Assembly: GCA_044373865.1 (NCBI GenBank) | Contig: JBILPN010000001.1 | Coordinates: 1-33,939 of the forward strand | Source: Luteolibacter sp. | GTDB taxonomy: Bacteria; Verrucomicrobiota; Verrucomicrobiia; Verrucomicrobiales; Akkermansiaceae | Direction: 5' to 3' | DNA length: 33,939 bases | In this document: positions 14,657-32,454 of the stretch, one piece after another | How the letters are laid out: each line of letters begins with the position of its first letter | How positions within the stretch are numbered: position 1 is the stretch's first letter | The notes under the pieces: model-generated | Databases searched by the model: none | The model's input: only the letters and a program-made list of their open reading frames with translations | What the model was told of the DNA's origin: nothing | Made by a program: the position numbers and the translations under genes

Positions 14657-15316
14657 GTCGGTGGTGGTTTCTTGGTTCTCGGATTCGCCGCTTGCGGCAT
14701 CGGGAGAGGGGAGATCATCAGGCATGCCTTCGAGCCCGTTCAGGGCGATGGTGTTGTGCATGATGTTGGGGGTGTTGGTGAGCGCGTCGCTCCACAGCAG
14801 GATGGGGCGGAAATAGCCGGCGCGGCCGGGGATCTCCGAGAGCCGCCAATAGGGCGAGTGGCCGGTGTATTTCGGCGCGTCGCCGTCGAGCAGCGCGGTG
14901 CCGTCGCTATTAAGTACACTGGTCACCCAGATTCCGTCGTCCTCCACCTCGATGGACTTGATCCGGCCGACGGCGCTGGCGCGGTGGCCGGGGTTTTTCT
15001 CGCGCCAGGCGGCATCATCGGCGTGGCCCTCGTAAATCGGCACGCCCCGGAAAAACGTCGCGAGCTTGCCCACCAGGCTGCCGTAGTTGGCGGCGAGGGT
15101 GGCGCCGGCCTGGCGGTCCACCACCTGGATGATGGCGTTGCCGTGGATGTCATCCACCGGAAACTCGCCGTAGGGGCTGAGGCGGTAGCGGAAACTCGTC
15201 TCGCCGCTGGCATTGGCCGGCAGCGCGAGTTCCTGGAACACGCCCGAGGCGGCGTTGATCGCGCCGGTGGCGGCGTTGAGCGCGGCGGTGAAGATGGGGA
15301 AGGATTTGGTTTTCAT
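14114..15316 (-). CDS. Mu gpI-like prohead protease with C-terminal scaffold
   Basis: LSPYGEF, YEGH, AVGRI, HSP and ALTNTPNI motifs; Ala-rich helical C-terminal half. Confidence 0.9.
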   Translation of the reverse strand: MKTKSFPIFTAALNAATGAINAASGVFQELALPANASGETSFRYRLSPYGEFPVDDIHGNAIIQVVDRQAGATLAANYGSLVGKLATFFRGVPIYEGHADDAAWREKNPGHRASAVGRIKSIEVEDDGIWVTSVLNSDGTALLDGDAPKYTGHSPYWRLSEIPGRAGYFRPILLWSDALTNTPNIMHNTIALNGLEGMPDDLPSPDAASGESENQETTTDMPLTPEALQALGFAPDAAPTAEEISAAIVKMLGDMASAEADKAAAMETVTAANSRLSLVETELHLVRGTAVETVLAEALNTGRITAADKPAWTAALNTSFATESAKLQTLMPVLNTSNRVAHLGTRRDANHSDAANAAERITQGVIAFAAEKAIDITTAPGWTKAYDACRVAKPELFTKA

Positions 15317-16833
15317 GCGTTAGAATCGGATAGCCAGGCGGCGGCGGTCTGGGCGGCGAGCTCGCGGCCGAGGTTCACGGCATCCCCGGCGAGCGCGGGC
15401 ATGTCCTTGGAAATCTTCTTGAGCGCGGCCTGGGTGGCGGCGTGGTCGCCTGCCTGATAGGCCGCGAACAACGCCTCGCCGAGCGGCTGCAGGTCCGCCG
15501 CAAGCGCGCTGCGCAGCGCTTGCAGGCTGGCGGAAACTTCCGGCCCGCCGGCTTCGTTGAGCGCGGCGGCTTGGAGCGGGGCGGCGGTGACGGATTCTCC
15601 CAGGGCCGCTTCTTCGGCGTCGGCTTCGACGAGGCCGAATTTCCCGAGGAACCAGCTTTTGGAAACCCGCACGCCCATGCTGCGGGCCTTCTCGACGATG
15701 CCGATCTCGGCGGTGAGATTGTTGCGGGTCTTGGTGCGCAGCTTCAGCTCGCAGAGCACCGGCGCATTCCGCCCGAATTTCCAGGCGATCACCTTGGGGG
15801 TGAGATTGCGGTTGAGGGTCTCGCTCACCCAGGCGGCGTTGTCGCTGTCGAGCTCGTCGGAGTCTTCCTGTTGGGGATTGGAGCCGGTGCCGTTTTCGCG
15901 GGACATGGTGGATAGATCGCCACCGCGCCACAGCATCACCTGGGCGCGGTCCATGCGGTCGATGAGTTTGACGTAAGGCACCTCGCCCTGGCCGGTGAGG
16001 TTGAGCACGTCGATCACGTCGCCGGTGTTGACCACCGCGCCGAATTCCGAGCCGATCCCGGCGACGGCGGCCGCCATGTCATTCCAGCCGGGGCTGCCCT
16101 TTTGGGCGGAGGTCCGGCCGAGGAAGGCGGGCATGCCGTGGCGGTCGCAATAGGTCAGCCAGTCCTGGAGCGGCAGTTGCTTGAACATCCGCGCCAGCAC
16201 CCCGGCGAGCATCACGCCGCGGCCTTTGGAGAGCATCCAGGCATTGCGGCCGCCGAGGGTGTCCAGCTCCACGCCGCGCTGGGCGGCATAGGCGGGGAGA
16301 AATTTCATCCGCCCGGTGGTCACTTCGAAGAACCACGTCGGCACCTTCACCAGCTCGGCATTGAGCGCGGCCCGCGATGGCCGCCAGATGATGTGGTGGG
16401 CGGCGTAGCCTTTGCCATAGGCATCCATGATCTGTTGGACGAGCAGGCGCATGCCGCCGGCTTCTTCCAGCTCCACGGCATCGGAGGTGCGGAGGTTCTG
16501 GTAGAATTCCTGCAGCACGCCCTGTTGGTCCTGCGCCGCCTGTTTCCATTCCGCCGGGATTTCCTCCTTCGGTAAAATGTCATAGCCGTGGCGGCTCACC
16601 GCGGCCTTCGCCTTGGGTGCCACGGTGGCGATGATGTCGTCGTGCTTTTCCAGCCACTCCATCACCCACGCCAGCCCGGCGATCTCGCCGCGCGAATAGG
16701 CCTCCAACTGCCGGACCAGCACGTCAGGCGTCCAGCCGCGCAGCGGATTGAAGCGGGTCTGCTTCTCCAGCCGAATCCGCTCCGCGGAAACCGGGCGGCC
16801 ATCAGGGCCGAGGATGCCGGATTCCGGCTTCAC
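15313..16833 (-). CDS. Portal protein (Mu gp29/DUF935)
   Basis: IMDAYGKGYA, DWLTYCDRHGMP, VSETLNRNL motifs; 506 aa. Confidence 0.92.
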   Translation of the reverse strand: MKPESGILGPDGRPVSAERIRLEKQTRFNPLRGWTPDVLVRQLEAYSRGEIAGLAWVMEWLEKHDDIIATVAPKAKAAVSRHGYDILPKEEIPAEWKQAAQDQQGVLQEFYQNLRTSDAVELEEAGGMRLLVQQIMDAYGKGYAAHHIIWRPSRAALNAELVKVPTWFFEVTTGRMKFLPAYAAQRGVELDTLGGRNAWMLSKGRGVMLAGVLARMFKQLPLQDWLTYCDRHGMPAFLGRTSAQKGSPGWNDMAAAVAGIGSEFGAVVNTGDVIDVLNLTGQGEVPYVKLIDRMDRAQVMLWRGGDLSTMSRENGTGSNPQQEDSDELDSDNAAWVSETLNRNLTPKVIAWKFGRNAPVLCELKLRTKTRNNLTAEIGIVEKARSMGVRVSKSWFLGKFGLVEADAEEAALGESVTAAPLQAAALNEAGGPEVSASLQALRSALAADLQPLGEALFAAYQAGDHAATQAALKKISKDMPALAGDAVNLGRELAAQTAAAWLSDSNA

Positions 16834-17006
16834 GCCGCACCTCCCGGGTAAAGGTTCGCAACGGGGCTGCCAGCCTCAGCCCGCTGGGCCGATGCACACC
16901 AATGCAGATACCGGCAGCGCGCCGAAGCTTCAGAGATGCGCAATGTCCGCTTTCCGAAAGCACCCCCCCTAGAATCGCCTCCTACGGCCTTGTTTTGAAA
17001 TGTCAT
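16830..17006 (-). CDS. 58-aa bridging ORF between TerL and portal
   Basis: Manual translation MTFQNKAVGG...VANLYPGGAA; ATGA overlap with TerL stop and GTGA overlap with portal start. Confidence 0.55.
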   Translation of the reverse strand: MTFQNKAVGGDSRGGAFGKRTLRISEASARCRYLHWCASAQRAEAGSPVANLYPGGAA

Positions 17007-18403
17007 AAATCCGCTCCTTTCCGCCGGAACTCCGGCCGCATGCCTGCCACGGCTTCATAGCCGCCGGTGCCACCAGCGCCGCTCTTGCCCGCGTGCAGTG
17101 CCAGGGCGAGGCCCCAGAATCTATCGGCGTGGCCGTTCATGCCGCGGTCCGCGGCGAAGCGCACGTTGCCGGCCGCCGTCACCTCCTTGCGGATCGCGCG
17201 GATGTCGGCCTTGAGTTTGTCATCCTCGAAGGGGATCCGGATCATCCGGTCCTCGAAGGCGGCGCGCACCGGATAGGCGAGGGCTTCCTTCATCGGCCCG
17301 GTGAAGGTCACGCCTTCGCACTTGTATTTGCCGAAGCGCTCGGCGCTGCGCTCCGCGAACTGCATGCCCAGCCCGGTGGCGTCGATGCACACCCGTTTGC
17401 AAATCTCGAACCACGGGTAGAGGATCGCCTCTTGCTCGGAAAACTTCAGGCCCTTCAGATCGATGCGCTTGCGCACCTGGTGCAGCCCGCCGGTTTTCTC
17501 CACCAGGGTGAAGCTGGTGAGATCGTGGTGGCGGCCGATATCGAGCCCGCCGTAAAGATCCGCGCCGAGCACTTGCGCCGGCGCGGGAAACTCCCAGGCG
17601 TCGCCCGCCGGATAGGTGCAGCCGTCCAGCAGGCTCCACTCGATGAACGCGCTCGCGTCGTCCGACGGCACGCACATATACTCCTGTTGGAAACTCTCCT
17701 CATCCGGCGCACCCTTGCGGATGAAGTCGAAGTAGGCCGCCTCGTCCATGTCCTGGCGTTCGTCGTCGGCGGGCAGCTTGCTTTGCAGCTTGTAGAGGAA
17801 CCCTTGGTCGAGCGCGTCTTGCAGGGTGACGCGGTGCAGGCTCCAGCCCTTCGGATTGCCCTTCTCGCGGATCTCGCGGATGAGCTGGTTGAAATAGTTC
17901 GCGCTGCCGCGGTGGGTGCTGAAAATCTCCAGGCAGCCGCCCCAGGTGATGCCGGGGTAGGCGATGGCATAGAGCTTGCGCGGATCCGGATGGAGCGCGA
18001 ACTCATCGAGCACGCGGTCGCCGCGCTTGCCGGCCTGCGCGTCCGGGTTGGAGCTCATCGAGTGGATCCGCAGGCTGTTCGCCATCATCATGATGAAGGC
18101 GGTGTTGCCCTTTTCATCCACCGCCCGCTCTCCCAGATCCGTGGCACCCAGTTGCAGGATCTTGGCAAAGGCCTTGCAGTCTTCCAAAAACAAGCGCGCC
18201 TGAATGTCATCCCGCGAGGAAATCCACGCATCCAGCCGGGCGCTCTTGAGCGCCTTGCGCCGCGTCAGGCCGTAGCCCGTCGCCCAGGTCCAGCCGATCT
18301 GCCGGGACTTCTCCGCGATCTTCAGCCGTGAGCTATCATTAACCCACGCCGCCTGATAGGGCAGCAGGATCGCACGCTCCGGAATGACCTTTGCCGCACC
18401 CAT
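17003..18403 (-). CDS. terL: Terminase large subunit (Mu gp28-like, 466 aa)
   Basis: LLPYQ, KSRQIGWT, VLDEFA, FQQEYMC, GLDIGR, HADRFWG motifs; start reassigned to TGATG overlap at 18403. Confidence 0.95.
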   Translation of the reverse strand: MGAAKVIPERAILLPYQAAWVNDSSRLKIAEKSRQIGWTWATGYGLTRRKALKSARLDAWISSRDDIQARLFLEDCKAFAKILQLGATDLGERAVDEKGNTAFIMMMANSLRIHSMSSNPDAQAGKRGDRVLDEFALHPDPRKLYAIAYPGITWGGCLEIFSTHRGSANYFNQLIREIREKGNPKGWSLHRVTLQDALDQGFLYKLQSKLPADDERQDMDEAAYFDFIRKGAPDEESFQQEYMCVPSDDASAFIEWSLLDGCTYPAGDAWEFPAPAQVLGADLYGGLDIGRHHDLTSFTLVEKTGGLHQVRKRIDLKGLKFSEQEAILYPWFEICKRVCIDATGLGMQFAERSAERFGKYKCEGVTFTGPMKEALAYPVRAAFEDRMIRIPFEDDKLKADIRAIRKEVTAAGNVRFAADRGMNGHADRFWGLALALHAGKSGAGGTGGYEAVAGMRPEFRRKGADL

Positions 18404-18948
18404 CAGAGCAGTCCCGCAGCCTCCTCGATCTGCTTGAGGGTTTCCGCCGTGAGTCCGCCGTTGGACTTCGCCGCGCTCGCCAGGGCCGTGAGTTTCGCTT
18501 TGGCCTCTCTGGCAGCTTCTTCCAACAGCCGCAGCTTGCGATCGTCGCGTGTCCCGGCCTGCGCCTTGATCAAGGTCTCCATCCACTTCCGCGCCTCTTC
18601 CGGGTTGCTGTTGGGATCGCGGATCAGCCGGTAGGCATACTCCTTGAGTTCGCCAATCGCCGCCGCGTCGAACGCTGCCGACTCGCCCGCCAGCTTCGCC
18701 AGCGTCTTGGCCGATAGCGCCGCGAACTGCTTGCGCTCCACCAGGATGGGCTCCACATGGCGCGAGTAAAACGGTGTGAGCGAGGAGAGCGAAACCGCGA
18801 CCCCGCACTCCACCGCCAGCCAGTCCAGCGCGGCGGTATAGGTCCAGCCGCACAGCAGCCCCTGCACCAGCTCGGCGAGTTGCGCCGGCGGCAGTGCATC
18901 GAGCTTCGAGTCGCCCCGTGGCTTGCGTGGTTTCGGTGGGGTGGCCAT
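18403..18948 (-). CDS. Terminase small subunit (Mu gp27/DUF3486-like)
   Basis: SKLDALP N-terminus, HTH (VSLSSLTPF), C-terminal GLTAETLKQI; upstream of TerL. Confidence 0.82.
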   Translation of the reverse strand: MATPPKPRKPRGDSKLDALPPAQLAELVQGLLCGWTYTAALDWLAVECGVAVSLSSLTPFYSRHVEPILVERKQFAALSAKTLAKLAGESAAFDAAAIGELKEYAYRLIRDPNSNPEEARKWMETLIKAQAGTRDDRKLRLLEEAAREAKAKLTALASAAKSNGGLTAETLKQIEEAAGLL

Positions 18949-21869: not shown

Positions 21870-22385
21870 TTACCGCTGAGGGTCGTTTCCAGCTGCGAGT
21901 CCGGATTTTTTCTCCGGCGCCTCGTTCCCGGTTCCCGCCGGTGCCAGCGCCAGCGCATTCCCCAACGCCAACGCCATCTGCGCCAGCACCTCCTCCATCC
22001 GCGCCATCCGCACCTGCAACTCCTCTTGCTTGTCCACCCGCGCCGCCAGGGTTTCTAGAAATTGCCGCATGCCGACCTCGTCATTAGCCGCCCTAATCAT
22101 TCCACCTAGGCTCTGCTGCGGGGATTCACTGATCCCCGATTGATTCGGCTTTACTGACGATTGTGCATTCCCAGACGCCATCCAGATCCCCGCCAGCCGC
22201 TCCGCCTGTTCTAATTTCCCCCAGCCCTTCGTGCTAATTTTGATACTGCCGTTGCGGTAGCCAAACAGCGACGCCACCGACAAACCCATCCTCGGGGCCA
22301 GTCCACGCAACGAAATCCCCAAGCGCGCCGCCAAAATGTCGGTGCGTTCTAAAAATCGGGCTTGTGTTCTAATTTCTTCTTGCAG
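21870..22385 (-). CDS. Prophage repressor (XRE/CI-like HTH); probable CTG start
   Basis: LGISLRGLAPRMGLSVASLFGYRNG HTH; frame open to TAG at 22401-22403 and includes helix 1 (FLERTDIL) upstream of the track's TTG; divergent from Cro-like gene. Confidence 0.8.
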   Translation of the reverse strand: MQEEIRTQARFLERTDILAARLGISLRGLAPRMGLSVASLFGYRNGSIKISTKGWGKLEQAERLAGIWMASGNAQSSVKPNQSGISESPQQSLGGMIRAANDEVGMRQFLETLAARVDKQEELQVRMARMEEVLAQMALALGNALALAPAGTGNEAPEKKSGLAAGNDPQR

Positions 22386-22483: not shown

Positions 22484-22684
22484 ATGACCACCACCCCGCA
22501 TCAATCCCAAGGCCGCCTGGTCCGCTACCCCGGAGCCACTCTCGCCGCCCAGGAACTCGGCGTCTCCCGCGGTCACCTTCACCGCGTCCTCATCGGCGAG
22601 CGCAAGAGCCACGTCCTCGTCAGCCGCTGGCACGCCTGGCTCGCCGCGCACCCCGAATTCGCCCGCCTCCAACAAACCCGCTGA
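22484..22684 (+). CDS. Cro/Ner-like HTH protein (66 aa)
   Basis: AAQELGVSRGHLHRVLIGERKS; first gene of early operon. Confidence 0.8.
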   Translation: MTTTPHQSQGRLVRYPGATLAAQELGVSRGHLHRVLIGERKSHVLVSRWHAWLAAHPEFARLQQTR

Positions 22685-23158: not shown

Positions 23159-23184
23159 CCCATAACTCCTAACTCCCTACCCCC

Positions 23185-23496
23185 ATGCCCCACCTCCAAC
23201 TCAGCCCCACCACCGCCGCCAAGGCCCACGCCGCCGCCCTCGACCGCGCCACCCGCGGCGTCCCCACCGCCGCGCAATACGCCAGCCAGCTCCAGGCCGC
23301 CCATGCCGCCGCCGTCGCCCGCGCCAACACCATCTGCGCCCGCGAGTCCGGCGTCATCTCCATCTACGCCCTCGGCGAGGTCATCGCCCAGATCGAGGCC
23401 GACCAACTCGACCACGCCCACCACCTCGAACTCACCGAATCCATCACCCTCCACCGCGTCCTCCGCCGCCTCAAGGATCTCCTCCCCCAACACTAA
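23185..23496 (+). CDS. Hypothetical protein (103 aa)
   Basis: C3-biased ORF with C-rich leader. Confidence 0.7.
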   Translation: MPHLQLSPTTAAKAHAAALDRATRGVPTAAQYASQLQAAHAAAVARANTICARESGVISIYALGEVIAQIEADQLDHAHHLELTESITLHRVLRRLKDLLPQH

Positions 23497-23515
23497 CTCC
23501 CCACCCCCAGCCACC

Positions 23516-23704
23516 ATGACCCCAGACCCCATGCTCTACATCATCGCCGCCGCCGTCCTCGGCGCCGCCATCGGCTTCTTCGCCTGCGCCCTCGTCGCCT
23601 CCCGCCGCATCCGCGACGCCGAGCGCGAAGGCTGGAAAGCCGGCGTCCGCTGCCGCCACCGCGAAGAAGCCCCCACCGCCGATCCCTGCCACCTCATCCG
23701 CTAA
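23516..23704 (+). CDS. Small single-TM protein (62 aa)
   Basis: MLYIIAAAVLGAAIGFFACALVA followed by basic tail. Confidence 0.7.
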   Translation: MTPDPMLYIIAAAVLGAAIGFFACALVASRRIRDAEREGWKAGVRCRHREEAPTADPCHLIR

Positions 23705-23725
23705 CTCCCACTAACTCCCGCTCCC

Positions 23726-23974
23726 ATGTCCGATCCCACCCTGCAAAACCTCCAGTCCCTCATCGCCGACCTCATCTGCGCCGACGCCCACGACATCCAC
23801 CTCCACGCCACCTTCGCCGAGCTCGGCATCGACAGCCTCGATCACGCCCAGCTCATCAACGAATGCGAGGACCACTTCGACCTCGAAATCGCCGACGCCG
23901 ACGCCGTCGCGGCCAGCACCGTCTCCGCCCTCTACGACCTCATCACCTCCGCCCAGGCAATCGCCCACGCCTGA
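23726..23974 (+). CDS. acpP: Acyl carrier protein homologue (82 aa)
   Basis: ATFAELGIDSLD phosphopantetheine motif (Ser37), EDHFDLEIADADA...TV; acidic, canonical ACP length; symbol denotes family, not proven orthology. Confidence 0.9.
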   Translation: MSDPTLQNLQSLIADLICADAHDIHLHATFAELGIDSLDHAQLINECEDHFDLEIADADAVAASTVSALYDLITSAQAIAHA

Positions 23975-24009
23975 CCGAAACGGACCGCCGGATTCATCCG
24001 GCCCGCATT
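23968..24009 (+). repeat. ~42-bp direct repeat copy 1 with REP-like palindrome
   Basis: CGCCTGACCGA-a-ACGGACCGCCGGATTCATCCGGCCCG-c-ATT; stem GCCGGAT/ATCCGGC. Confidence 0.9.
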
Positions 24010-24466: not shown

Positions 24467-24502
24467 CCGACCACGGACCGCCGGATTCATCCGGCCCGTA
24501 TT
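24460..24502 (+). repeat. ~42-bp direct repeat copy 2 with REP-like palindrome
   Basis: 26-bp core 24473-24498 identical to 23980-24005; 11-bp upstream part also identical. Confidence 0.9.
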
Positions 24503-24522: not shown

Positions 24523-25599
24523 ATGTCCGACCCATCACTCATCGCCGCCTTCGCCTCGCCTCGCACCCTGGAAGAGCAACTCGATTCCATCCATCAAGCC
24601 CCGCCGCTCTCCGCGCTGGCACGCATCAAAGTCATCGAGCGCAACCAGGACGGATACTCTCCGGCACAAGTCCTGTTGATTTTCGAAGACGCCCTTACCC
24701 GCGAAGTGCGCACCAATCCCCAGCGCCGTGGCGTGATCCAAGCGCTGAAACAATCCATCAAGCGCGTCACTCCGCAAACCGCCGCCGCCACCGCCGCCAC
24801 CGCCGCCACCGGCACCCGCTACAACCCCGAGACCGGCCTCGTCGAGCTCACCCACGACCAACCCCGCCGCGCCGAGTGGGACGCCGTCCGCGAAACCGTC
24901 CAACAAATCAGCTTCGCCGGCCGCATGTTCGTCCGTGGCCAGGTCAAACTCGGCATGCTGCTCGCCGGCCTCAAAAAGGCCCACGGCGTCCACCGCGGCC
25001 GCCCCGAAAAGAATTCGGCAGAATCTGCCCATTTAATTCCCTGGGCGCAAATCGTCCAAGACGAAACCGGCTTCTCGCGCAAATCCGGCGACGAATTCAT
25101 CCGCCTGTTCGAAGCCACCAAGGTCAAACTCAAGAAGGCCACCACCCTCGATCTGCCCGAAGACCTCGCCAAGGACGCCCTGGTCCTCTTCCAGACCGAG
25201 AACGCCCTCGCCCTCAGCGCCGAGCAGTGGACCCAGGTCGATGACCTCATCGGCACCCTCACCAGCGGCGAGACCCAAGCCAGCCTCATGCAGCAGCTCG
25301 GCGTCCTCGCCAAGCCCGCCAAGATGCCCACCAAAACCGGCACCAAGGACCAGCCCGCCGAGCCGAGCGCCGGCCAGCTCGCCTTCCATTTCTTCGACGG
25401 CGTCGCCGCCCCGCTCATCAACGCCCGCACCAATCCGGACTACAAACTCTACCTGCTCGCCCTCCCCCTCACCAGCGATGCCGAGCACCCGCTCAGCCTC
25501 GCCACCCTCAAAGCCGAAGCCCGCGCCCTCATCGCCGACATCGAAGAGGCCGAGCAAGCCAACGCCAAGCCCGCCAAGGGCAAAGTCATCACCGTCTGA
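24523..25599 (+). CDS. DUF3102-like early protein (358 aa)
   Basis: VKLGMLLAGLKKAHG...WAQIVQDETGFSRKSGDEFIRLF pattern; directly upstream of transposase as in other transposable phages. Confidence 0.6.
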   Translation: MSDPSLIAAFASPRTLEEQLDSIHQAPPLSALARIKVIERNQDGYSPAQVLLIFEDALTREVRTNPQRRGVIQALKQSIKRVTPQTAAATAATAATGTRYNPETGLVELTHDQPRRAEWDAVRETVQQISFAGRMFVRGQVKLGMLLAGLKKAHGVHRGRPEKNSAESAHLIPWAQIVQDETGFSRKSGDEFIRLFEATKVKLKKATTLDLPEDLAKDALVLFQTENALALSAEQWTQVDDLIGTLTSGETQASLMQQLGVLAKPAKMPTKTGTKDQPAEPSAGQLAFHFFDGVAAPLINARTNPDYKLYLLALPLTSDAEHPLSLATLKAEARALIADIEEAEQANAKPAKGKVITV

Positions 25600-25640: not shown

Positions 25641-27824
25641 ATGACCACCCTCGCCTCCGCCCGCAAAAGCCAGCTCGACCTCATCATTGACGAGGGCGGC
25701 CTCGCCGAGCTGAGCCAACTCTCGCCCAACCAGAAGAGCGATCTCTTCGCCAAGCTCGGCGCGGTGCAGCTCGTCAGCGCCGCCGCCTACGGCACCAAGC
25801 AGGGCATCGTGGCCACCCAGGCGAGGGTGTTGCGGGTTTCCGAGCAAGCCATCAACGGTTGGCTCGCCCTCTACAAAAAACACGGCTTCCGCGCCCTCAT
25901 CGACGGCCGCAAAGCCGCCGCCGGCAGCCGCGCCGCCCTCCCCGAAGTCACCCGCCAATGGATCAAAGACCAGATCCTCAACTGCCAGCGCCGCGACGCC
26001 GTCGCCGAGGTCCACCGCATGACCCTCGCCCAGTGGCGCATGTGGCAGCGCACCGGCGATCCTCAATGGGCCATCCCCGGATTCTCCTCCCCTCCGGCCG
26101 ATGCCGGCAAAGGCTTCCCCGCCGGCTTCTCCGTCGAAAACTTCCGCCGCTGCGGCCCGGACAATTACCAGAAAACCCTCGCCGCCCAGGGCACCATCGC
26201 CGCCTATCGCACCCTCCCCTCCATCCTCTCCACCAGCGTCGGCACCCGCTACCTGGAATACGTCTTCTTCGACGATGAAAAGCCCGACGTCAACGTCCGC
26301 GTCCTCGGCTACGACCGCCCCATGGTCCCGCTCTGCTTCCACGCCCTCGACCGCCTCACCCGCTTTCCCTTCCGGCCGCACATCCGCCTCCGTTGGTATG
26401 ATACCGACAAGCAGACCCACAAGCACCTCACCCAAAAGGAATTCGTCTGGTATGTCATCTTCCTGCTAGTCACCGAGGGCTATCGCGCCGATGAAGTCGG
26501 CACCACCTACATCCAAGAACACGGCACCGCCAAAGTCTGGGCCAATCAATCCCTTGCCACCCCCGGCGGCTTCCACTCCTTCGAGGATGCGCTCCGCAGC
26601 ATCACCGCCCGCGATGGCATGCCCGGCGTCCGCATCGATTCCTCCGGCCTCTTCAATCGCCCCGCATTCTCCGAGCTGCTCTACGGCCCGCAGTCCTCCG
26701 GCAACCCGCGCTTCAAGGCCCCCATCGAATCCTCCTTCCACCTCTGGCGCATCTACTCCCAGCACCTGCTCGGACAAACCGGCCTCAACATCGGCAACGC
26801 CCCCGAGGAAAACCACGGCATCGCCAAATACGAGCGCAAGATCCTCAAGATCGCCAACGATCTCCCCGCCCACATCCGCGAAAGCCTGCTCTCCAATTTC
26901 CTCACCGGCGTCGAATTCGGCTCCGTCGCCGAGCTGATCCGCCTCGCCCTCGCCAACCGCGACGACCACAAATTCGAAGGCTGGTATGAGAATGGATTCG
27001 TCGAACCCGTCTGGCGCTGGGCCGAGGAACCGGTCGGCACCTGGCACTCCCGCAGCGAGCTCGCAAACCTCCCGCAGCACCTCCGCGAGCACGCCCTCCA
27101 CCAGCAGCGCCAGGACCCGCGCCTGTCCGATCTGCAAAGCTGGTCCCCGGCCATCGCCCGCGAAACCTGCCTCCGCGATCCCGCCCTCAACAAGCTCTCC
27201 ATCTTCGACGCCATCCACCTCGTCCCCACCGCCTGGCTCAAGCCCGCCAAGTTCAACAAGCGCAATTTCGTCGAGGTCACCGAGGAACTCCTCCCCGGCA
27301 TGGATCTCCAATACCTCCCCGAACTCACCACCCTGCGCGGCCGCACCGAAGTCCTCCGTCAGGGCGACAAGGTCATGCTCCTGCTCAACCCCCTCATGCC
27401 CGACACCGTCCTCTGTTATGATCAAAACCTGACGCCCATCGGCACCCTCACCCGCAACGTCCCCCTCGGCCGCGATTCCGACCAGATCGAGGAACTCTAC
27501 AAACAACGCTCCCGCATCAAGACCGCCATGGACGCCCCCGTCCGCCGCGCCATGCAAGGCCAGGCCGACCGCCGCGACGTCATCAAACGCTTCAACGACG
27601 ACCTCATCCAGAAAGCCCGCGACGAAGCCGCCGGCAAGCCCGCCACCGAGCACGAGCGCCACGTTGCCGCAGGCCAGCAAGCCGTCCGCACCGCCGCTGC
27701 AAACCGCCTGCAAACCCACGGCTCCGCCACCGACTGGGACAACCACCCCGCCGCCGCAGCCCCGCCCACCCGCAACGCCTGGGACGACCTCCCCGACGAA
27801 GTCGACCTCCACGACGCCCTCTAA
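25641..27824 (+). CDS. MuA-like DDE-fold transposase (727 aa)
   Basis: N-terminal HTH (VSEQAINGWLALYKKHGFRALIDGR), VFFDD, YIQEHG, GNPRFKAPIESSF; followed by AAA ATPase. Confidence 0.9.
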   Translation: MTTLASARKSQLDLIIDEGGLAELSQLSPNQKSDLFAKLGAVQLVSAAAYGTKQGIVATQARVLRVSEQAINGWLALYKKHGFRALIDGRKAAAGSRAALPEVTRQWIKDQILNCQRRDAVAEVHRMTLAQWRMWQRTGDPQWAIPGFSSPPADAGKGFPAGFSVENFRRCGPDNYQKTLAAQGTIAAYRTLPSILSTSVGTRYLEYVFFDDEKPDVNVRVLGYDRPMVPLCFHALDRLTRFPFRPHIRLRWYDTDKQTHKHLTQKEFVWYVIFLLVTEGYRADEVGTTYIQEHGTAKVWANQSLATPGGFHSFEDALRSITARDGMPGVRIDSSGLFNRPAFSELLYGPQSSGNPRFKAPIESSFHLWRIYSQHLLGQTGLNIGNAPEENHGIAKYERKILKIANDLPAHIRESLLSNFLTGVEFGSVAELIRLALANRDDHKFEGWYENGFVEPVWRWAEEPVGTWHSRSELANLPQHLREHALHQQRQDPRLSDLQSWSPAIARETCLRDPALNKLSIFDAIHLVPTAWLKPAKFNKRNFVEVTEELLPGMDLQYLPELTTLRGRTEVLRQGDKVMLLLNPLMPDTVLCYDQNLTPIGTLTRNVPLGRDSDQIEELYKQRSRIKTAMDAPVRRAMQGQADRRDVIKRFNDDLIQKARDEAAGKPATEHERHVAAGQQAVRTAAANRLQTHGSATDWDNHPAAAAPPTRNAWDDLPDEVDLHDAL

Positions 27825-27873: not shown

Positions 27874-28938
27874 ATGCAAAACCACATCACCACCCCCACA
27901 CCCGCCCCCGCCGGCACCAACCTCGCCGTCTCCGCCCACGACTTCGAGCACCTCATGACCGCGGCCACCCTCAAAGGCACCTACACCGAAGCCCAGGTCG
28001 AAACCCTCCGCTGGTGGTACTTCACCGCCAAGCAACACGGCTGGAACCTCCAACGCCTCGCCAAAAACACCGGCATCTCCACCACCGTCCTCTATCGCCT
28101 GCTGCGCGTCGAGTATCAGGCGGACCCCGCCAACAGCATCACCAAGCTCCAACGCGCCAAGGAAAATTTCGCCGAGTCCGCCGACAATCCCGACTTCATC
28201 GAAACCTCCCTCGCCGCCCGCCTCTTCACCATCTTCGACAAGACCCGCGCCCTCAAAAACGTCTCCATCCTCTGGGGCAAGATGGGCATCGGCAAAACCG
28301 AGTGCATCAACGAATACGTCCGCCAGAACAACCACGGCCGCACCATCTGCGTCCGCTTCCCCGCCGGCTCCTCCTTCGCCTACTTCGTCTCCCATGTCGC
28401 CCGCCACCTCGGCGTCGCCAAATCCCAGTCCGCCTTCCAACAGCGCGACCGCATCATCCAGGTCCTCGCCGCCGGCCAGCGCCTCCTCATCATCGACGAG
28501 CTCCACCAGGCATTCCTCACCACCCGCACCGACACCGCCGTCAAATGCTGCGAGTTCCTCCGTGAGATCGCCGATTGCTCCGCCTGCGGCATGGTCCTCG
28601 TCGGCACCGAGCTGCTCGAAGAGCACGTCTTCCGCGGCCCCCACAAAGACGCCCTCAAACAGCTCGTCGACCGCGGCACCGTCCAGGTCCCGCTCCCCGC
28701 CAAAGCCACCAAAAAAGACTACCAGAAATTCCTCGGCTCCTACGGCCTCGATTTCCCCGATCCCTCCACCCAGCCCGAAGCCGCCGAGATCCTCGCCGAC
28801 ATCATCAAATCCGCCGGCCTGCGCAAACTCACCCTCCACCTCCGCGACGGTGCCGCCTACGCCAACAAGTGCGACCAAGCCTACAACTGGTCCCACTTCA
28901 CCGCCGCCTTCGAAGCCATCCAATCCCTCAGCAAATGA
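27874..28938 (+). CDS. MuB-like AAA+ transposition ATPase (354 aa)
   Basis: N-terminal HTH, Walker A GKMGIGKT, Walker B LLIIDE, LREIAD, MVLVGT, GLRKL. Confidence 0.92.
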   Translation: MQNHITTPTPAPAGTNLAVSAHDFEHLMTAATLKGTYTEAQVETLRWWYFTAKQHGWNLQRLAKNTGISTTVLYRLLRVEYQADPANSITKLQRAKENFAESADNPDFIETSLAARLFTIFDKTRALKNVSILWGKMGIGKTECINEYVRQNNHGRTICVRFPAGSSFAYFVSHVARHLGVAKSQSAFQQRDRIIQVLAAGQRLLIIDELHQAFLTTRTDTAVKCCEFLREIADCSACGMVLVGTELLEEHVFRGPHKDALKQLVDRGTVQVPLPAKATKKDYQKFLGSYGLDFPDPSTQPEAAEILADIIKSAGLRKLTLHLRDGAAYANKCDQAYNWSHFTAAFEAIQSLSK

Positions 28939-31822: not shown

Positions 31823-31838
31823 AGTTTTCTAATCTGTC
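31823..31838 (-). repeat. Right-end inner transposase-binding-like site
   Basis: Reverse complement GACAGATTAGAAAACT. Confidence 0.8.
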
Positions 31839-31853
31839 CGACGTTTCGGGCAT

Positions 31854-31894
31854 CTCCGGCGGCAGTTTTCCACAACTGCCGCCGGAGCTGTTTT
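31854..31894 (+). terminator. Intrinsic terminator of early operon
   Basis: CTCCGGCGGCAGTT-ttccac-AACTGCCGCCGGAG perfect 14-bp stem, then CTGTTTT. Confidence 0.85.
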
Positions 31895-31960
31895 AGCCCC
31901 CCCCGGTGCCCTGAAACCCCTCAAAAACAGGCTGTTTCGGGATAATCCGGGCAAATTTGG

Positions 31961-31976
31961 GCTTTTCTAATCTCCA
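31961..31976 (-). repeat. Right terminal site ending in CA (TG on minus strand)
   Basis: Reverse complement TGGAGATTAGAAAAGC; same core as other end sites. Confidence 0.8.
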
Positions 31977-32454
31977 TTGGCTGGATTCCGCGGAAATCGT
32001 GGAGGATGGAAAGCTTGCGGCCGGGGCCCTCGATGCGGACGGGGATGCCGAGCCGGCGGGCTTTGGCGAGCACGGCCTGTTTTTGGCGGAGTTCGAGCTG
32101 CTCGATTGCGGCGACGACGCGGGCGCGAGTCGCGGGGTCGGCCATGTCGGCACCGGCGAGGATTTCGGGGATGGCGCGGCCTCGGGCGGCTTGCTCGCGG
32201 GTGGATGGCCGGGTTTTCACCGCCGGGCGATTGGCGGCGGGGAGGGGCTGCGGTGCGCGTGCGGCGGTGGTGGCGGTGTTTGGCTCGCTGGAAAAGGTTT
32301 CCCGCGCGGGGGCATGAGATGCGGTTGCTGCAGCCGTTGGGGTGGCGGCGGGACGGCTGGACGTGAACCCGCGCGACTTCCACGCGACGAAGCCGCAAAG
32401 GATGAGGAGAGCGGCGATGGTAAGAACCACGCGGCGGCGATGCCGGGACTGCAT
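31977..32454 (-). pseudogene. 5' fragment of a host exported protein truncated by the prophage
   Basis: Signal/TM (RRRVVLTIAALLILCGFVAW), Ala/Pro linker, start of a globular domain that runs into the phage end at ...HDFRGIQP and stops 18 codons later; possibly a protease pro-region (unverified recollection). Confidence 0.7.

Follow-up and report, generated by a model that had tools for sequence, protein, structure and literature searches.

An optional early gene of Mu-like phages of Luteolibacter encodes a divergent acyl carrier protein, a possible decoy for a host partner

The acyl carrier protein (ACP) fold is found beside DNA-transaction proteins in Tn7, where it meets TnsD together with uL29, and in MukBEF, and a role in nicking by the Tn3 transposase is attributed to host ACP. 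In Tn7, helix II of ACP bridges uL29 and TnsD, and the double mutation of Asp38 and Glu41 abolishes binding to the uL29/TnsD complex (PMC12372198); apo-ACP suffices there and is accepted by MukBEF as well (PMC12372198, PMC8602292). Fab enzymes, PlsX, SpoT and MukB are likewise bound through helix II (PMC3340395, PMC8602292), and Asp35 and Asp38 orient Ser36 on AcpS (PMC3447402). Escherichia coli ACP carrying Met44Ile loses binding to FabZ, FabA, PlsX and MukB but still supports growth (PMC3340395). ACP genes of phages are already known and unexplained: 90 phage ACP records were matched in this work, and the function of phage-encoded ACPs has been described as unclear (PMC5463345). In Mu-like phages of Pseudomonas, short, patchily distributed ORFs occupy fixed variable slots of plasticity regions, and these accessory slots hold host-directed genes such as anti-CRISPRs (PMC4378225).

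Here we analyze an ACP gene in the early operon of a Mu-like prophage of Luteolibacter, probably a lake-water bacterium. The window, that is, the whole stretch of 33,939 nucleotides under study, is one entire contig of a genome assembly that is 79% complete, and it encodes a Mu-like phage set consisting of transposase A, ATPase B, Mu portal, gp36-like adaptor, terminase, endolysin and tail genes. The relevant features are as follows.

15313..18406, minus strand: Mu-type portal and terminase large subunit (Portal_Mu, E 8e-46; Terminase_6C, E 1e-16)
21870..22334, minus strand: divergent repressor-like gene, so assigned by position, with no family match
22484..22684, plus strand: Ner-like first early gene (family F10), so assigned by position and HTH-like sequence
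23516..23704, plus strand: 62-aa gene with an N-terminal hydrophobic segment (family F11)
23726..23974, plus strand: ACP gene, 82 aa, divergent, Ser37 in DSLDH, member of a 52-sequence lineage
23982..24005, plus strand: hairpin-forming repeat, copy 1, 24 nt, immediately 3' of the ACP stop codon
24038..24466, plus strand: 142-aa accessory gene of no known family
24475..24498, plus strand: hairpin-forming repeat, copy 2, 24 nt, 3' of the 142-aa gene
24523..25599, plus strand: 358-aa early gene, frequent in this group of phages whether or not ACP is present
25641..27824, plus strand: Mu-type transposase A, 727 aa (PHROG 310, E 6.6e-09)
27874..28938, plus strand: transposition ATPase B, 354 aa (AAA_22, TniB; PHROG 296, E 3e-27)
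31825..31976, plus strand: candidate right end of the prophage, a repeated 11-nt motif ending in CA

An intact ACP three genes ahead of the transposase had been described in a first-pass annotation; both the protein and the gene order (ACP, 142-aa gene, 358-aa gene, transposase) hold. So does its statement that the prophage lacks fatty-acid, PKS and PPTase genes: no such family was detected among 42 ORFs compared with Pfam and 41 compared with PHROGs. The same scans detected no ligase, acyltransferase or Mom-like gene in the prophage and no TniQ/TnsD-type protein in the element, and with no partner enzyme found, the gene does not look metabolic, as had been proposed. The ACP gene has a small hydrophobic gene one or two positions 5' in all four loci that were read, and family F11 is present also in elements without ACP. 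Linkage of ACP to the 142-aa gene was ruled out by a partial homolog of the latter in L128, a phage contig without ACP. The 358-aa protein shows a weak DUF3102-like resemblance, which is a lead only.

Several other features of the prophage were recorded. The two hairpin copies are identical and lie on either side of the 142-aa gene, possibly marking a cassette boundary; the core of the repeat has one further copy in the genome and one in L092. The motif TAACTCC occurs five times in the spacers ahead of early genes (23163-23718) and is a possible translation or transcription signal. Sequences resembling the candidate right end (near 31976) occur in four related loci; a left end, sought alongside it on the pattern of TG...CA termini with a 5-bp target duplication, was not found. 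The right end near 31976 apparently cuts a host ORF (31921-32454, minus strand) whose N terminus looks signal-like, and the left flank of the prophage holds no continuation of this ORF. Compared with the terminase/portal region of the window (17003-18406), those of L067, L068, L084 and L093 are 24-79% identical, in a pattern that does not track the transposase; terminase/portal types are thus swapped among close relatives, which shows module exchange. Neither an Rfam match nor a sigma-70-like promoter was found, and the output of the repeat finder was mostly GC-rich noise.

The 82-aa product, with the motif LGIDSLDH, scores 53.6 bits against PF00550 (curated cut-off, 20.8) and matches PHROG 5934, 'acyl carrier protein', a profile with no curated cut-off, with E 9e-12 and 46 bits. 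The AlphaFold2 model (mean pLDDT 87.9) has the four-helix ACP fold (helices 4-17, 37-51, 57-62 and 66-81), with the serine at the start of helix II, and its top PDB match is Bacillus subtilis ACP (2x2b; TM 0.83). The protein thus resembles AcpP in fold, in acidity (pI ~4; zero Lys or Arg, six His) and in the D-S-L-D motif, and is 34-37% identical to the AcpPs of host relatives, but differs in falling under the cut-off of the AcpP equivalog TIGR00517 (42.5 bits compared with 70.45; host AcpP, 114.7 bits) and in being encoded in an early operon rather than at the host acpP locus. The neighborhood of host acpP runs past the end of contig C552 in this 79%-complete assembly; the possibility that the phage ACP substitutes for a missing host acpP was rejected, because the genomes G280 and G305 carry both genes. 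The gene is not an assembly artefact, because contigs from three independent lake metagenomes span it with unbroken coverage; lake contig X2 is identical to the window gene, and X4 and X6 have two substitutions each. The frequency of C at third codon positions is 0.84, above all 1353 long host ORFs (mean 0.41, maximum 0.70) and in line with the other early genes measured (0.58-0.85, one exception at 0.41). The codon bias reported previously as phage-like is therefore real, with the qualification that it owes something to the strong C skew of the strand that carries the early operon.

The comparison of residues uses AcpP numbers, which equal the window position minus one, so that Ser37 of the window is Ser36 of AcpP. 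In the window protein, the positions of Thr39, Glu41, Met44 and Glu47-49 of AcpP hold His, Gln, Asn and Glu-Asp-His, respectively. Across the 52 members of the lineage, the PPTase motif is retained (Asp35 in 52/52, Ser36 in 49/52, Asp38 in 46/52), as are Glu47 (49/52), Phe50 (50/52) and the hydrophobic core. The docking residues, by contrast, are mostly replaced: Glu41 is kept in 7/52 members (Gln in 31), Met44 in 3/52, Glu49 in 0/52 and Glu60 in 2/52, compared with 14, 14, 13 and 14 of 14 host AcpPs, respectively; in seven cultured-phage ACPs, Glu41 is kept in 7/7 and Met44 in 6/7. Thr39 is replaced by His (window His40) in 39/52 members, a T-L-x-N-L signature specific to the lineage marks the start of helix I (45-52 of 52), and the loop ahead of the LG-x-DS motif is one residue shorter than in AcpP in 49/52. 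The altered recognition helix noted at first pass is hence a lineage-wide feature. The six histidines noted there were counted correctly in the window protein, but only His40 (39/52) and His50 (21/52) recur, and a histidine-rich composition as a lineage trait was rejected given a median core count of merely two.

Because Asp35-Ser36-x-Asp38 are kept together, we infer that the serine-bearing majority would still be substrates of a PPTase. Conversely, helix II, which binds Fab enzymes, PlsX, SpoT and MukB, is altered, so that the lineage ACPs probably dock less well on canonical partners. The altered residues are no proof that the protein fails in fatty-acid synthesis, because Met44Ile ACP supports the growth of E. 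coli.

The 52 sequences were collected by protein searches, an exhaustive phmmer run and one genome locus, and thus chosen by similarity to the query. All of them fall on one side of a branch with an SH-aLRT value of 95. In a tree of 29 lineage members, seven host AcpPs, seven cultured-phage ACPs and 17 other ACPs, a branch supported at 99/96, resolved on 83 columns only, sets the 29 apart; an antisense ORF (L020_x) present in one early tree was excluded from the later ones. Nesting within host AcpP clades was not seen, in agreement with the earlier proposal that the gene is not a recent capture of host acpP, and the gene belongs to a lineage of its own rather than being a one-off capture. The median identity is 44% within the lineage and 29% between the lineage and host AcpP, compared with 82% among 14 host AcpPs; the lineage diverges far faster than host AcpP.

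The ACPs of cultured phages (PHROGs 5934 and 4154) are among the closest counterparts, being orphan ACPs without fab genes, like the present one, which also has a structural match in BFVD. Those compared, seven of the 90 records, come from Erythrobacter phage ZS04, Pseudomonas phage pf16, Prochlorococcus phage P-HM2, Achromobacter phage Motura, Ralstonia phage RSL1, Brevundimonas phage Bajun and Rhizobium phage RHph_X2_30. They differ in belonging to phages of 65-231 kb and in universally keeping Glu41, and none falls inside the lineage, which, as far as its context is legible, is found in transposable phages of 31-37 kb. Genomic context comes from four of the 52 members (the window, G280, G257 and G305): three lie in Mu-like early operons and the other on a 1.5-kb contig, amid the same set of small early genes. 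Among the 47 members with a stated contig size, seven exceed 30 kb, all at 31.2-36.9 kb, matching the sizes of related viral contigs (31.6-37.0 kb in 8/8). Scans of viral, metagenome and genome contig collections yielded no further members; L066, L069, L070, L130 and L104 (the last with a 16-residue match) were rejected as ordinary ACPs or unrelated sequences. A profile search of 400 genomes of the family and 400 of the phylum found members solely in the genus of the window, under stricter E cut-offs and with at most 13 candidates scored per genome, settings that could hide members. Among the matches listed in a search of the open-access literature, none dealt with an ACP lineage belonging to transposable phages and none with a phage ACP that had been tested as a decoy.

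Some members depart from the standard architecture. An intact Ser-to-Ala sub-lineage (DALAQ) comprises three clusters (P0194, P0195 and P0196), all of which also lack Asp38; it has a conserved C-terminal extension and retains Glu41 and the loop of AcpP length. One such form (L036:1092-1379, in G257:C398) occupies the identical early-operon slot of a Mu-like prophage, and phosphopantetheine modification may have become dispensable in this branch. Three further clusters (P0022, P0191 and P0193) are fusions of ACP with a zinc ribbon, one of which matches Lar weakly, below the cut-off (PF14354, E 9e-4), and in P0096 the ACP is fused to a hydrophobic N-terminal segment. A Lar-like ribbon is a separate gene beside the ACP gene in G280 and a separate gene 3' of the ATPase in elements without ACP, so that the fusion is possibly a read-through between neighbors. 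Lar-like ribbon loci were recorded at L064:7478-7993 and L076:13226-13423.

To place the gene among related elements, we used a transposase profile search, which gave 36 matches in 29 of 209 genomes of the genus; a single-protein transposase scan gave no match. The resulting 25 elements with a readable early region comprise genus loci and seven viral contigs, with L099 dropped as a duplicate of L098 and with G257 scored as an ACP carrier, its two contigs overlapping exactly by 141 bases. Another 15 loci, in which the early region is cut off or which are a different compact element type, were left out, and no ACP was found in the DNA of these that was examined. The ACP gene is present in three of the 25 elements and missing from 22, so that the predicted linkage to transposase and ATPase across related prophages is not borne out and the gene is largely absent from them. 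The early slot in related elements is also filled by many other interchangeable small genes, and the three ACP-bearing early regions share the core genes alone, with no companion gene exclusive to them. In two elements without ACP, an ASCH-domain gene lies between the homolog of the 358-aa gene and the transposase (L067:11074-11451 and L068:11103-11498). Five loci (L085, L087, L088, L089 and L090) are compact and hold both transposase A and ATPase B; in four of them a Mu portal gene lies just 3'. No terminase match was found in the DNA of these loci that was examined, and they are possible Mu-like satellites or decayed prophages. L098 and L099, both in the complete genome G263, appear to be identical Mu-like prophage copies at different sites, consistent with recent transposition.

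We give a probability of about one half to the following reading. Mu-like phages carry this early gene as an option, and its product, likely to bear phosphopantetheine but to be of little use to fatty-acid synthesis, is a putative decoy on a host partner. Judging from the position of the gene, the ACP would be expressed early during lytic growth. Host AcpS, which is present, would likely load phosphopantetheine onto it, given the retained motif; with Glu41, Met44, Glu49 and Glu60 replaced, the protein would likely dock poorly on fatty-acid enzymes and could instead occupy an ACP-binding site on a host protein. One candidate target is an envelope-lipid enzyme, AcpS itself or an acyl-ACP acyltransferase, with membrane synthesis damped or redirected; glycerol-3-phosphate acyltransferase is inhibited by apo-ACP (PMC3896788). 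The other candidate is an ACP-binding defence protein, and we divide our expectation about evenly between this and an envelope-lipid enzyme. The fold, the separate lineage, the lineage-wide residue changes, the patchy presence and the independence from transposase type are established. The decoy reading fits best because the gene is a patchy, fast-diverging early gene in a variable slot, has no phage partner, and combines a retained modification motif with a rebuilt docking surface. The plasticity regions of Pseudomonas Mu-like phages offer a parallel, although they belong to phages of a different host group and ACP goes unmentioned in that account, in which 'acyl' does not occur (PMC4378225). 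Against a decoy, the serine is present in 49/52 members, although it is needless for a pure surface mimic and needed by a real carrier, and the acidic docking face, lost here, is what a true decoy of Fab enzymes should have preserved.

A decoy had been among the first proposals, and it fits the data, except that two of the targets named then are nearly absent from the genus: MukB was found over the cut-off in none of 101 genomes, and a RelA/SpoT domain in 2/101, both in short frames. Near absence of RelA/SpoT has been reported for the phylum of the host (PMC8118318). A JetA-like Wadjet gene is present in 12/101 genomes of the genus, and an SMC review mentions ACP for MukBEF only (PMC10512200). 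Analogies with MukB and SpoT have little bearing on this genus; what remains as candidate targets are the lipid-side partners of ACP and defence proteins of an unrecognised type. We suggest only tentatively that the phages carry a counter-defence or takeover family, in which early ACP mimics would jam an ACP-dependent verrucomicrobial machine, going serine-less and fusing with Lar-like ribbons.

A doubtful but serious alternative is that the holo-ACP serves a single reaction of the host or the phage by carrying an acyl or aminoacyl group, the altered helix II routing it away from general fatty-acid synthesis; acylation of lipid A or lipoprotein, or modification of phage DNA or protein, might conceivably be such a reaction. 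Conservation of the serine with its flanking Asp residues, the hydrophobic core and Phe50, the presence of a second PPTase-family gene in the genus beside AcpS, and the signature His40 at the start of helix II are all in its favor, and atypical second ACPs do serve as dedicated carriers, AcpB of Enterococcus faecalis being a working carrier at 30% identity (PMC6509188). Against such a carrier stand the lack of a detected ligase, acyltransferase or Mom-like gene in the prophage, ACP-bearing early regions that share no companion gene, a persisting serine-less lineage and divergence far faster than that of host AcpP.

A dedicated transposition cofactor, which the first-pass annotation had offered beside the decoy, would bind transposase A, the 358-aa protein or ATPase B and stimulate transpososome assembly or target choice. 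The Tn7 precedent invoked for it is genuine, although it runs through host ACP, uL29 and TnsD, and in all three loci with a transposase, the ACP gene lies within ~2 kb upstream on the same strand; moreover, loss of the serine would be tolerable for a cofactor, because apo-ACP suffices in Tn7. The transposases nevertheless tell against it. On a tree of 20 transposases from these elements, the ACP label requires three changes (shuffled mean, 2.9), which is clustering at the chance level, and a single clade of ACP carriers is rejected (p-AU 6e-6). The gene is missing from elements with transposases 58-67% identical to that of the window, including the nearest ones (61-67%), and from L084, the nearest transposase relative of G257, whereas the transposases of ACP carriers are just 25-39% identical to that of the window and their ATPases ~30%. 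Whereas Tn7 and MukBEF use the host's own AcpP through its acidic helix II, the ACP here is phage-borne and optional, Glu41 is replaced while Asp38 is kept, no TnsD-type protein was found among the scanned ORFs of the element and MukB was found in none of 101 genomes of the host genus; the many interchangeable genes in the slot weigh in the same direction. Loss of Glu41 alone is not decisive against Tn7-type binding, as the published mutant was double, and the absence of the gene from 22 elements weakens the cofactor model without doing more, because elements without it could borrow host ACP. Taken together, we consider a dedicated cofactor improbable.

Comparably improbable is a near-neutral passenger, an ACP of ancient capture that now drifts without affecting phage fitness. 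The rarity of the gene (3/25 elements), at least five amino-acid variants in lake populations, an internal deletion in the lineage member P0214, and an apparent dN/dS of ~1 in six pairwise comparisons, an unreliable value given that synonymous change is compressed by codon bias, are compatible with drift. However, 52 intact members, which diverge to as little as 24% identity, have retained Leu9, Asp36 and the core together with new residues specific to the lineage, and the gene is intact in independent lake metagenomes. Least probable is an auxiliary metabolic gene that simply adds to the ACP available for making membranes, the role put forward for roseobacter prophage acpP (annotated in eight prophages, three of them with fabG and fabF; PMC8224337): AcpP-like genes do occur in many phages, but this protein falls well short of the AcpP equivalog cut-off and has lost the docking acids, and no fab genes were detected nearby in the Pfam scan.

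Orphan ACP genes, found in many phages, are usually filed as fatty-acid helpers, and the present lineage cautions that phage matches to PF00550 are not all lipid metabolism. It offers a natural contrast set: nearly identical Mu-like phages that have or lack the gene, forms with and without the serine in one slot, and a rebuilt docking helix. This set allows the role of phage ACPs to be tested directly. A defence protein as the target would expose an unrecognised link between ACP and antiphage immunity, and should the counter-defence reading be true, pull-downs would uncover a bacterial defence system that depends on ACP or is able to sense it.
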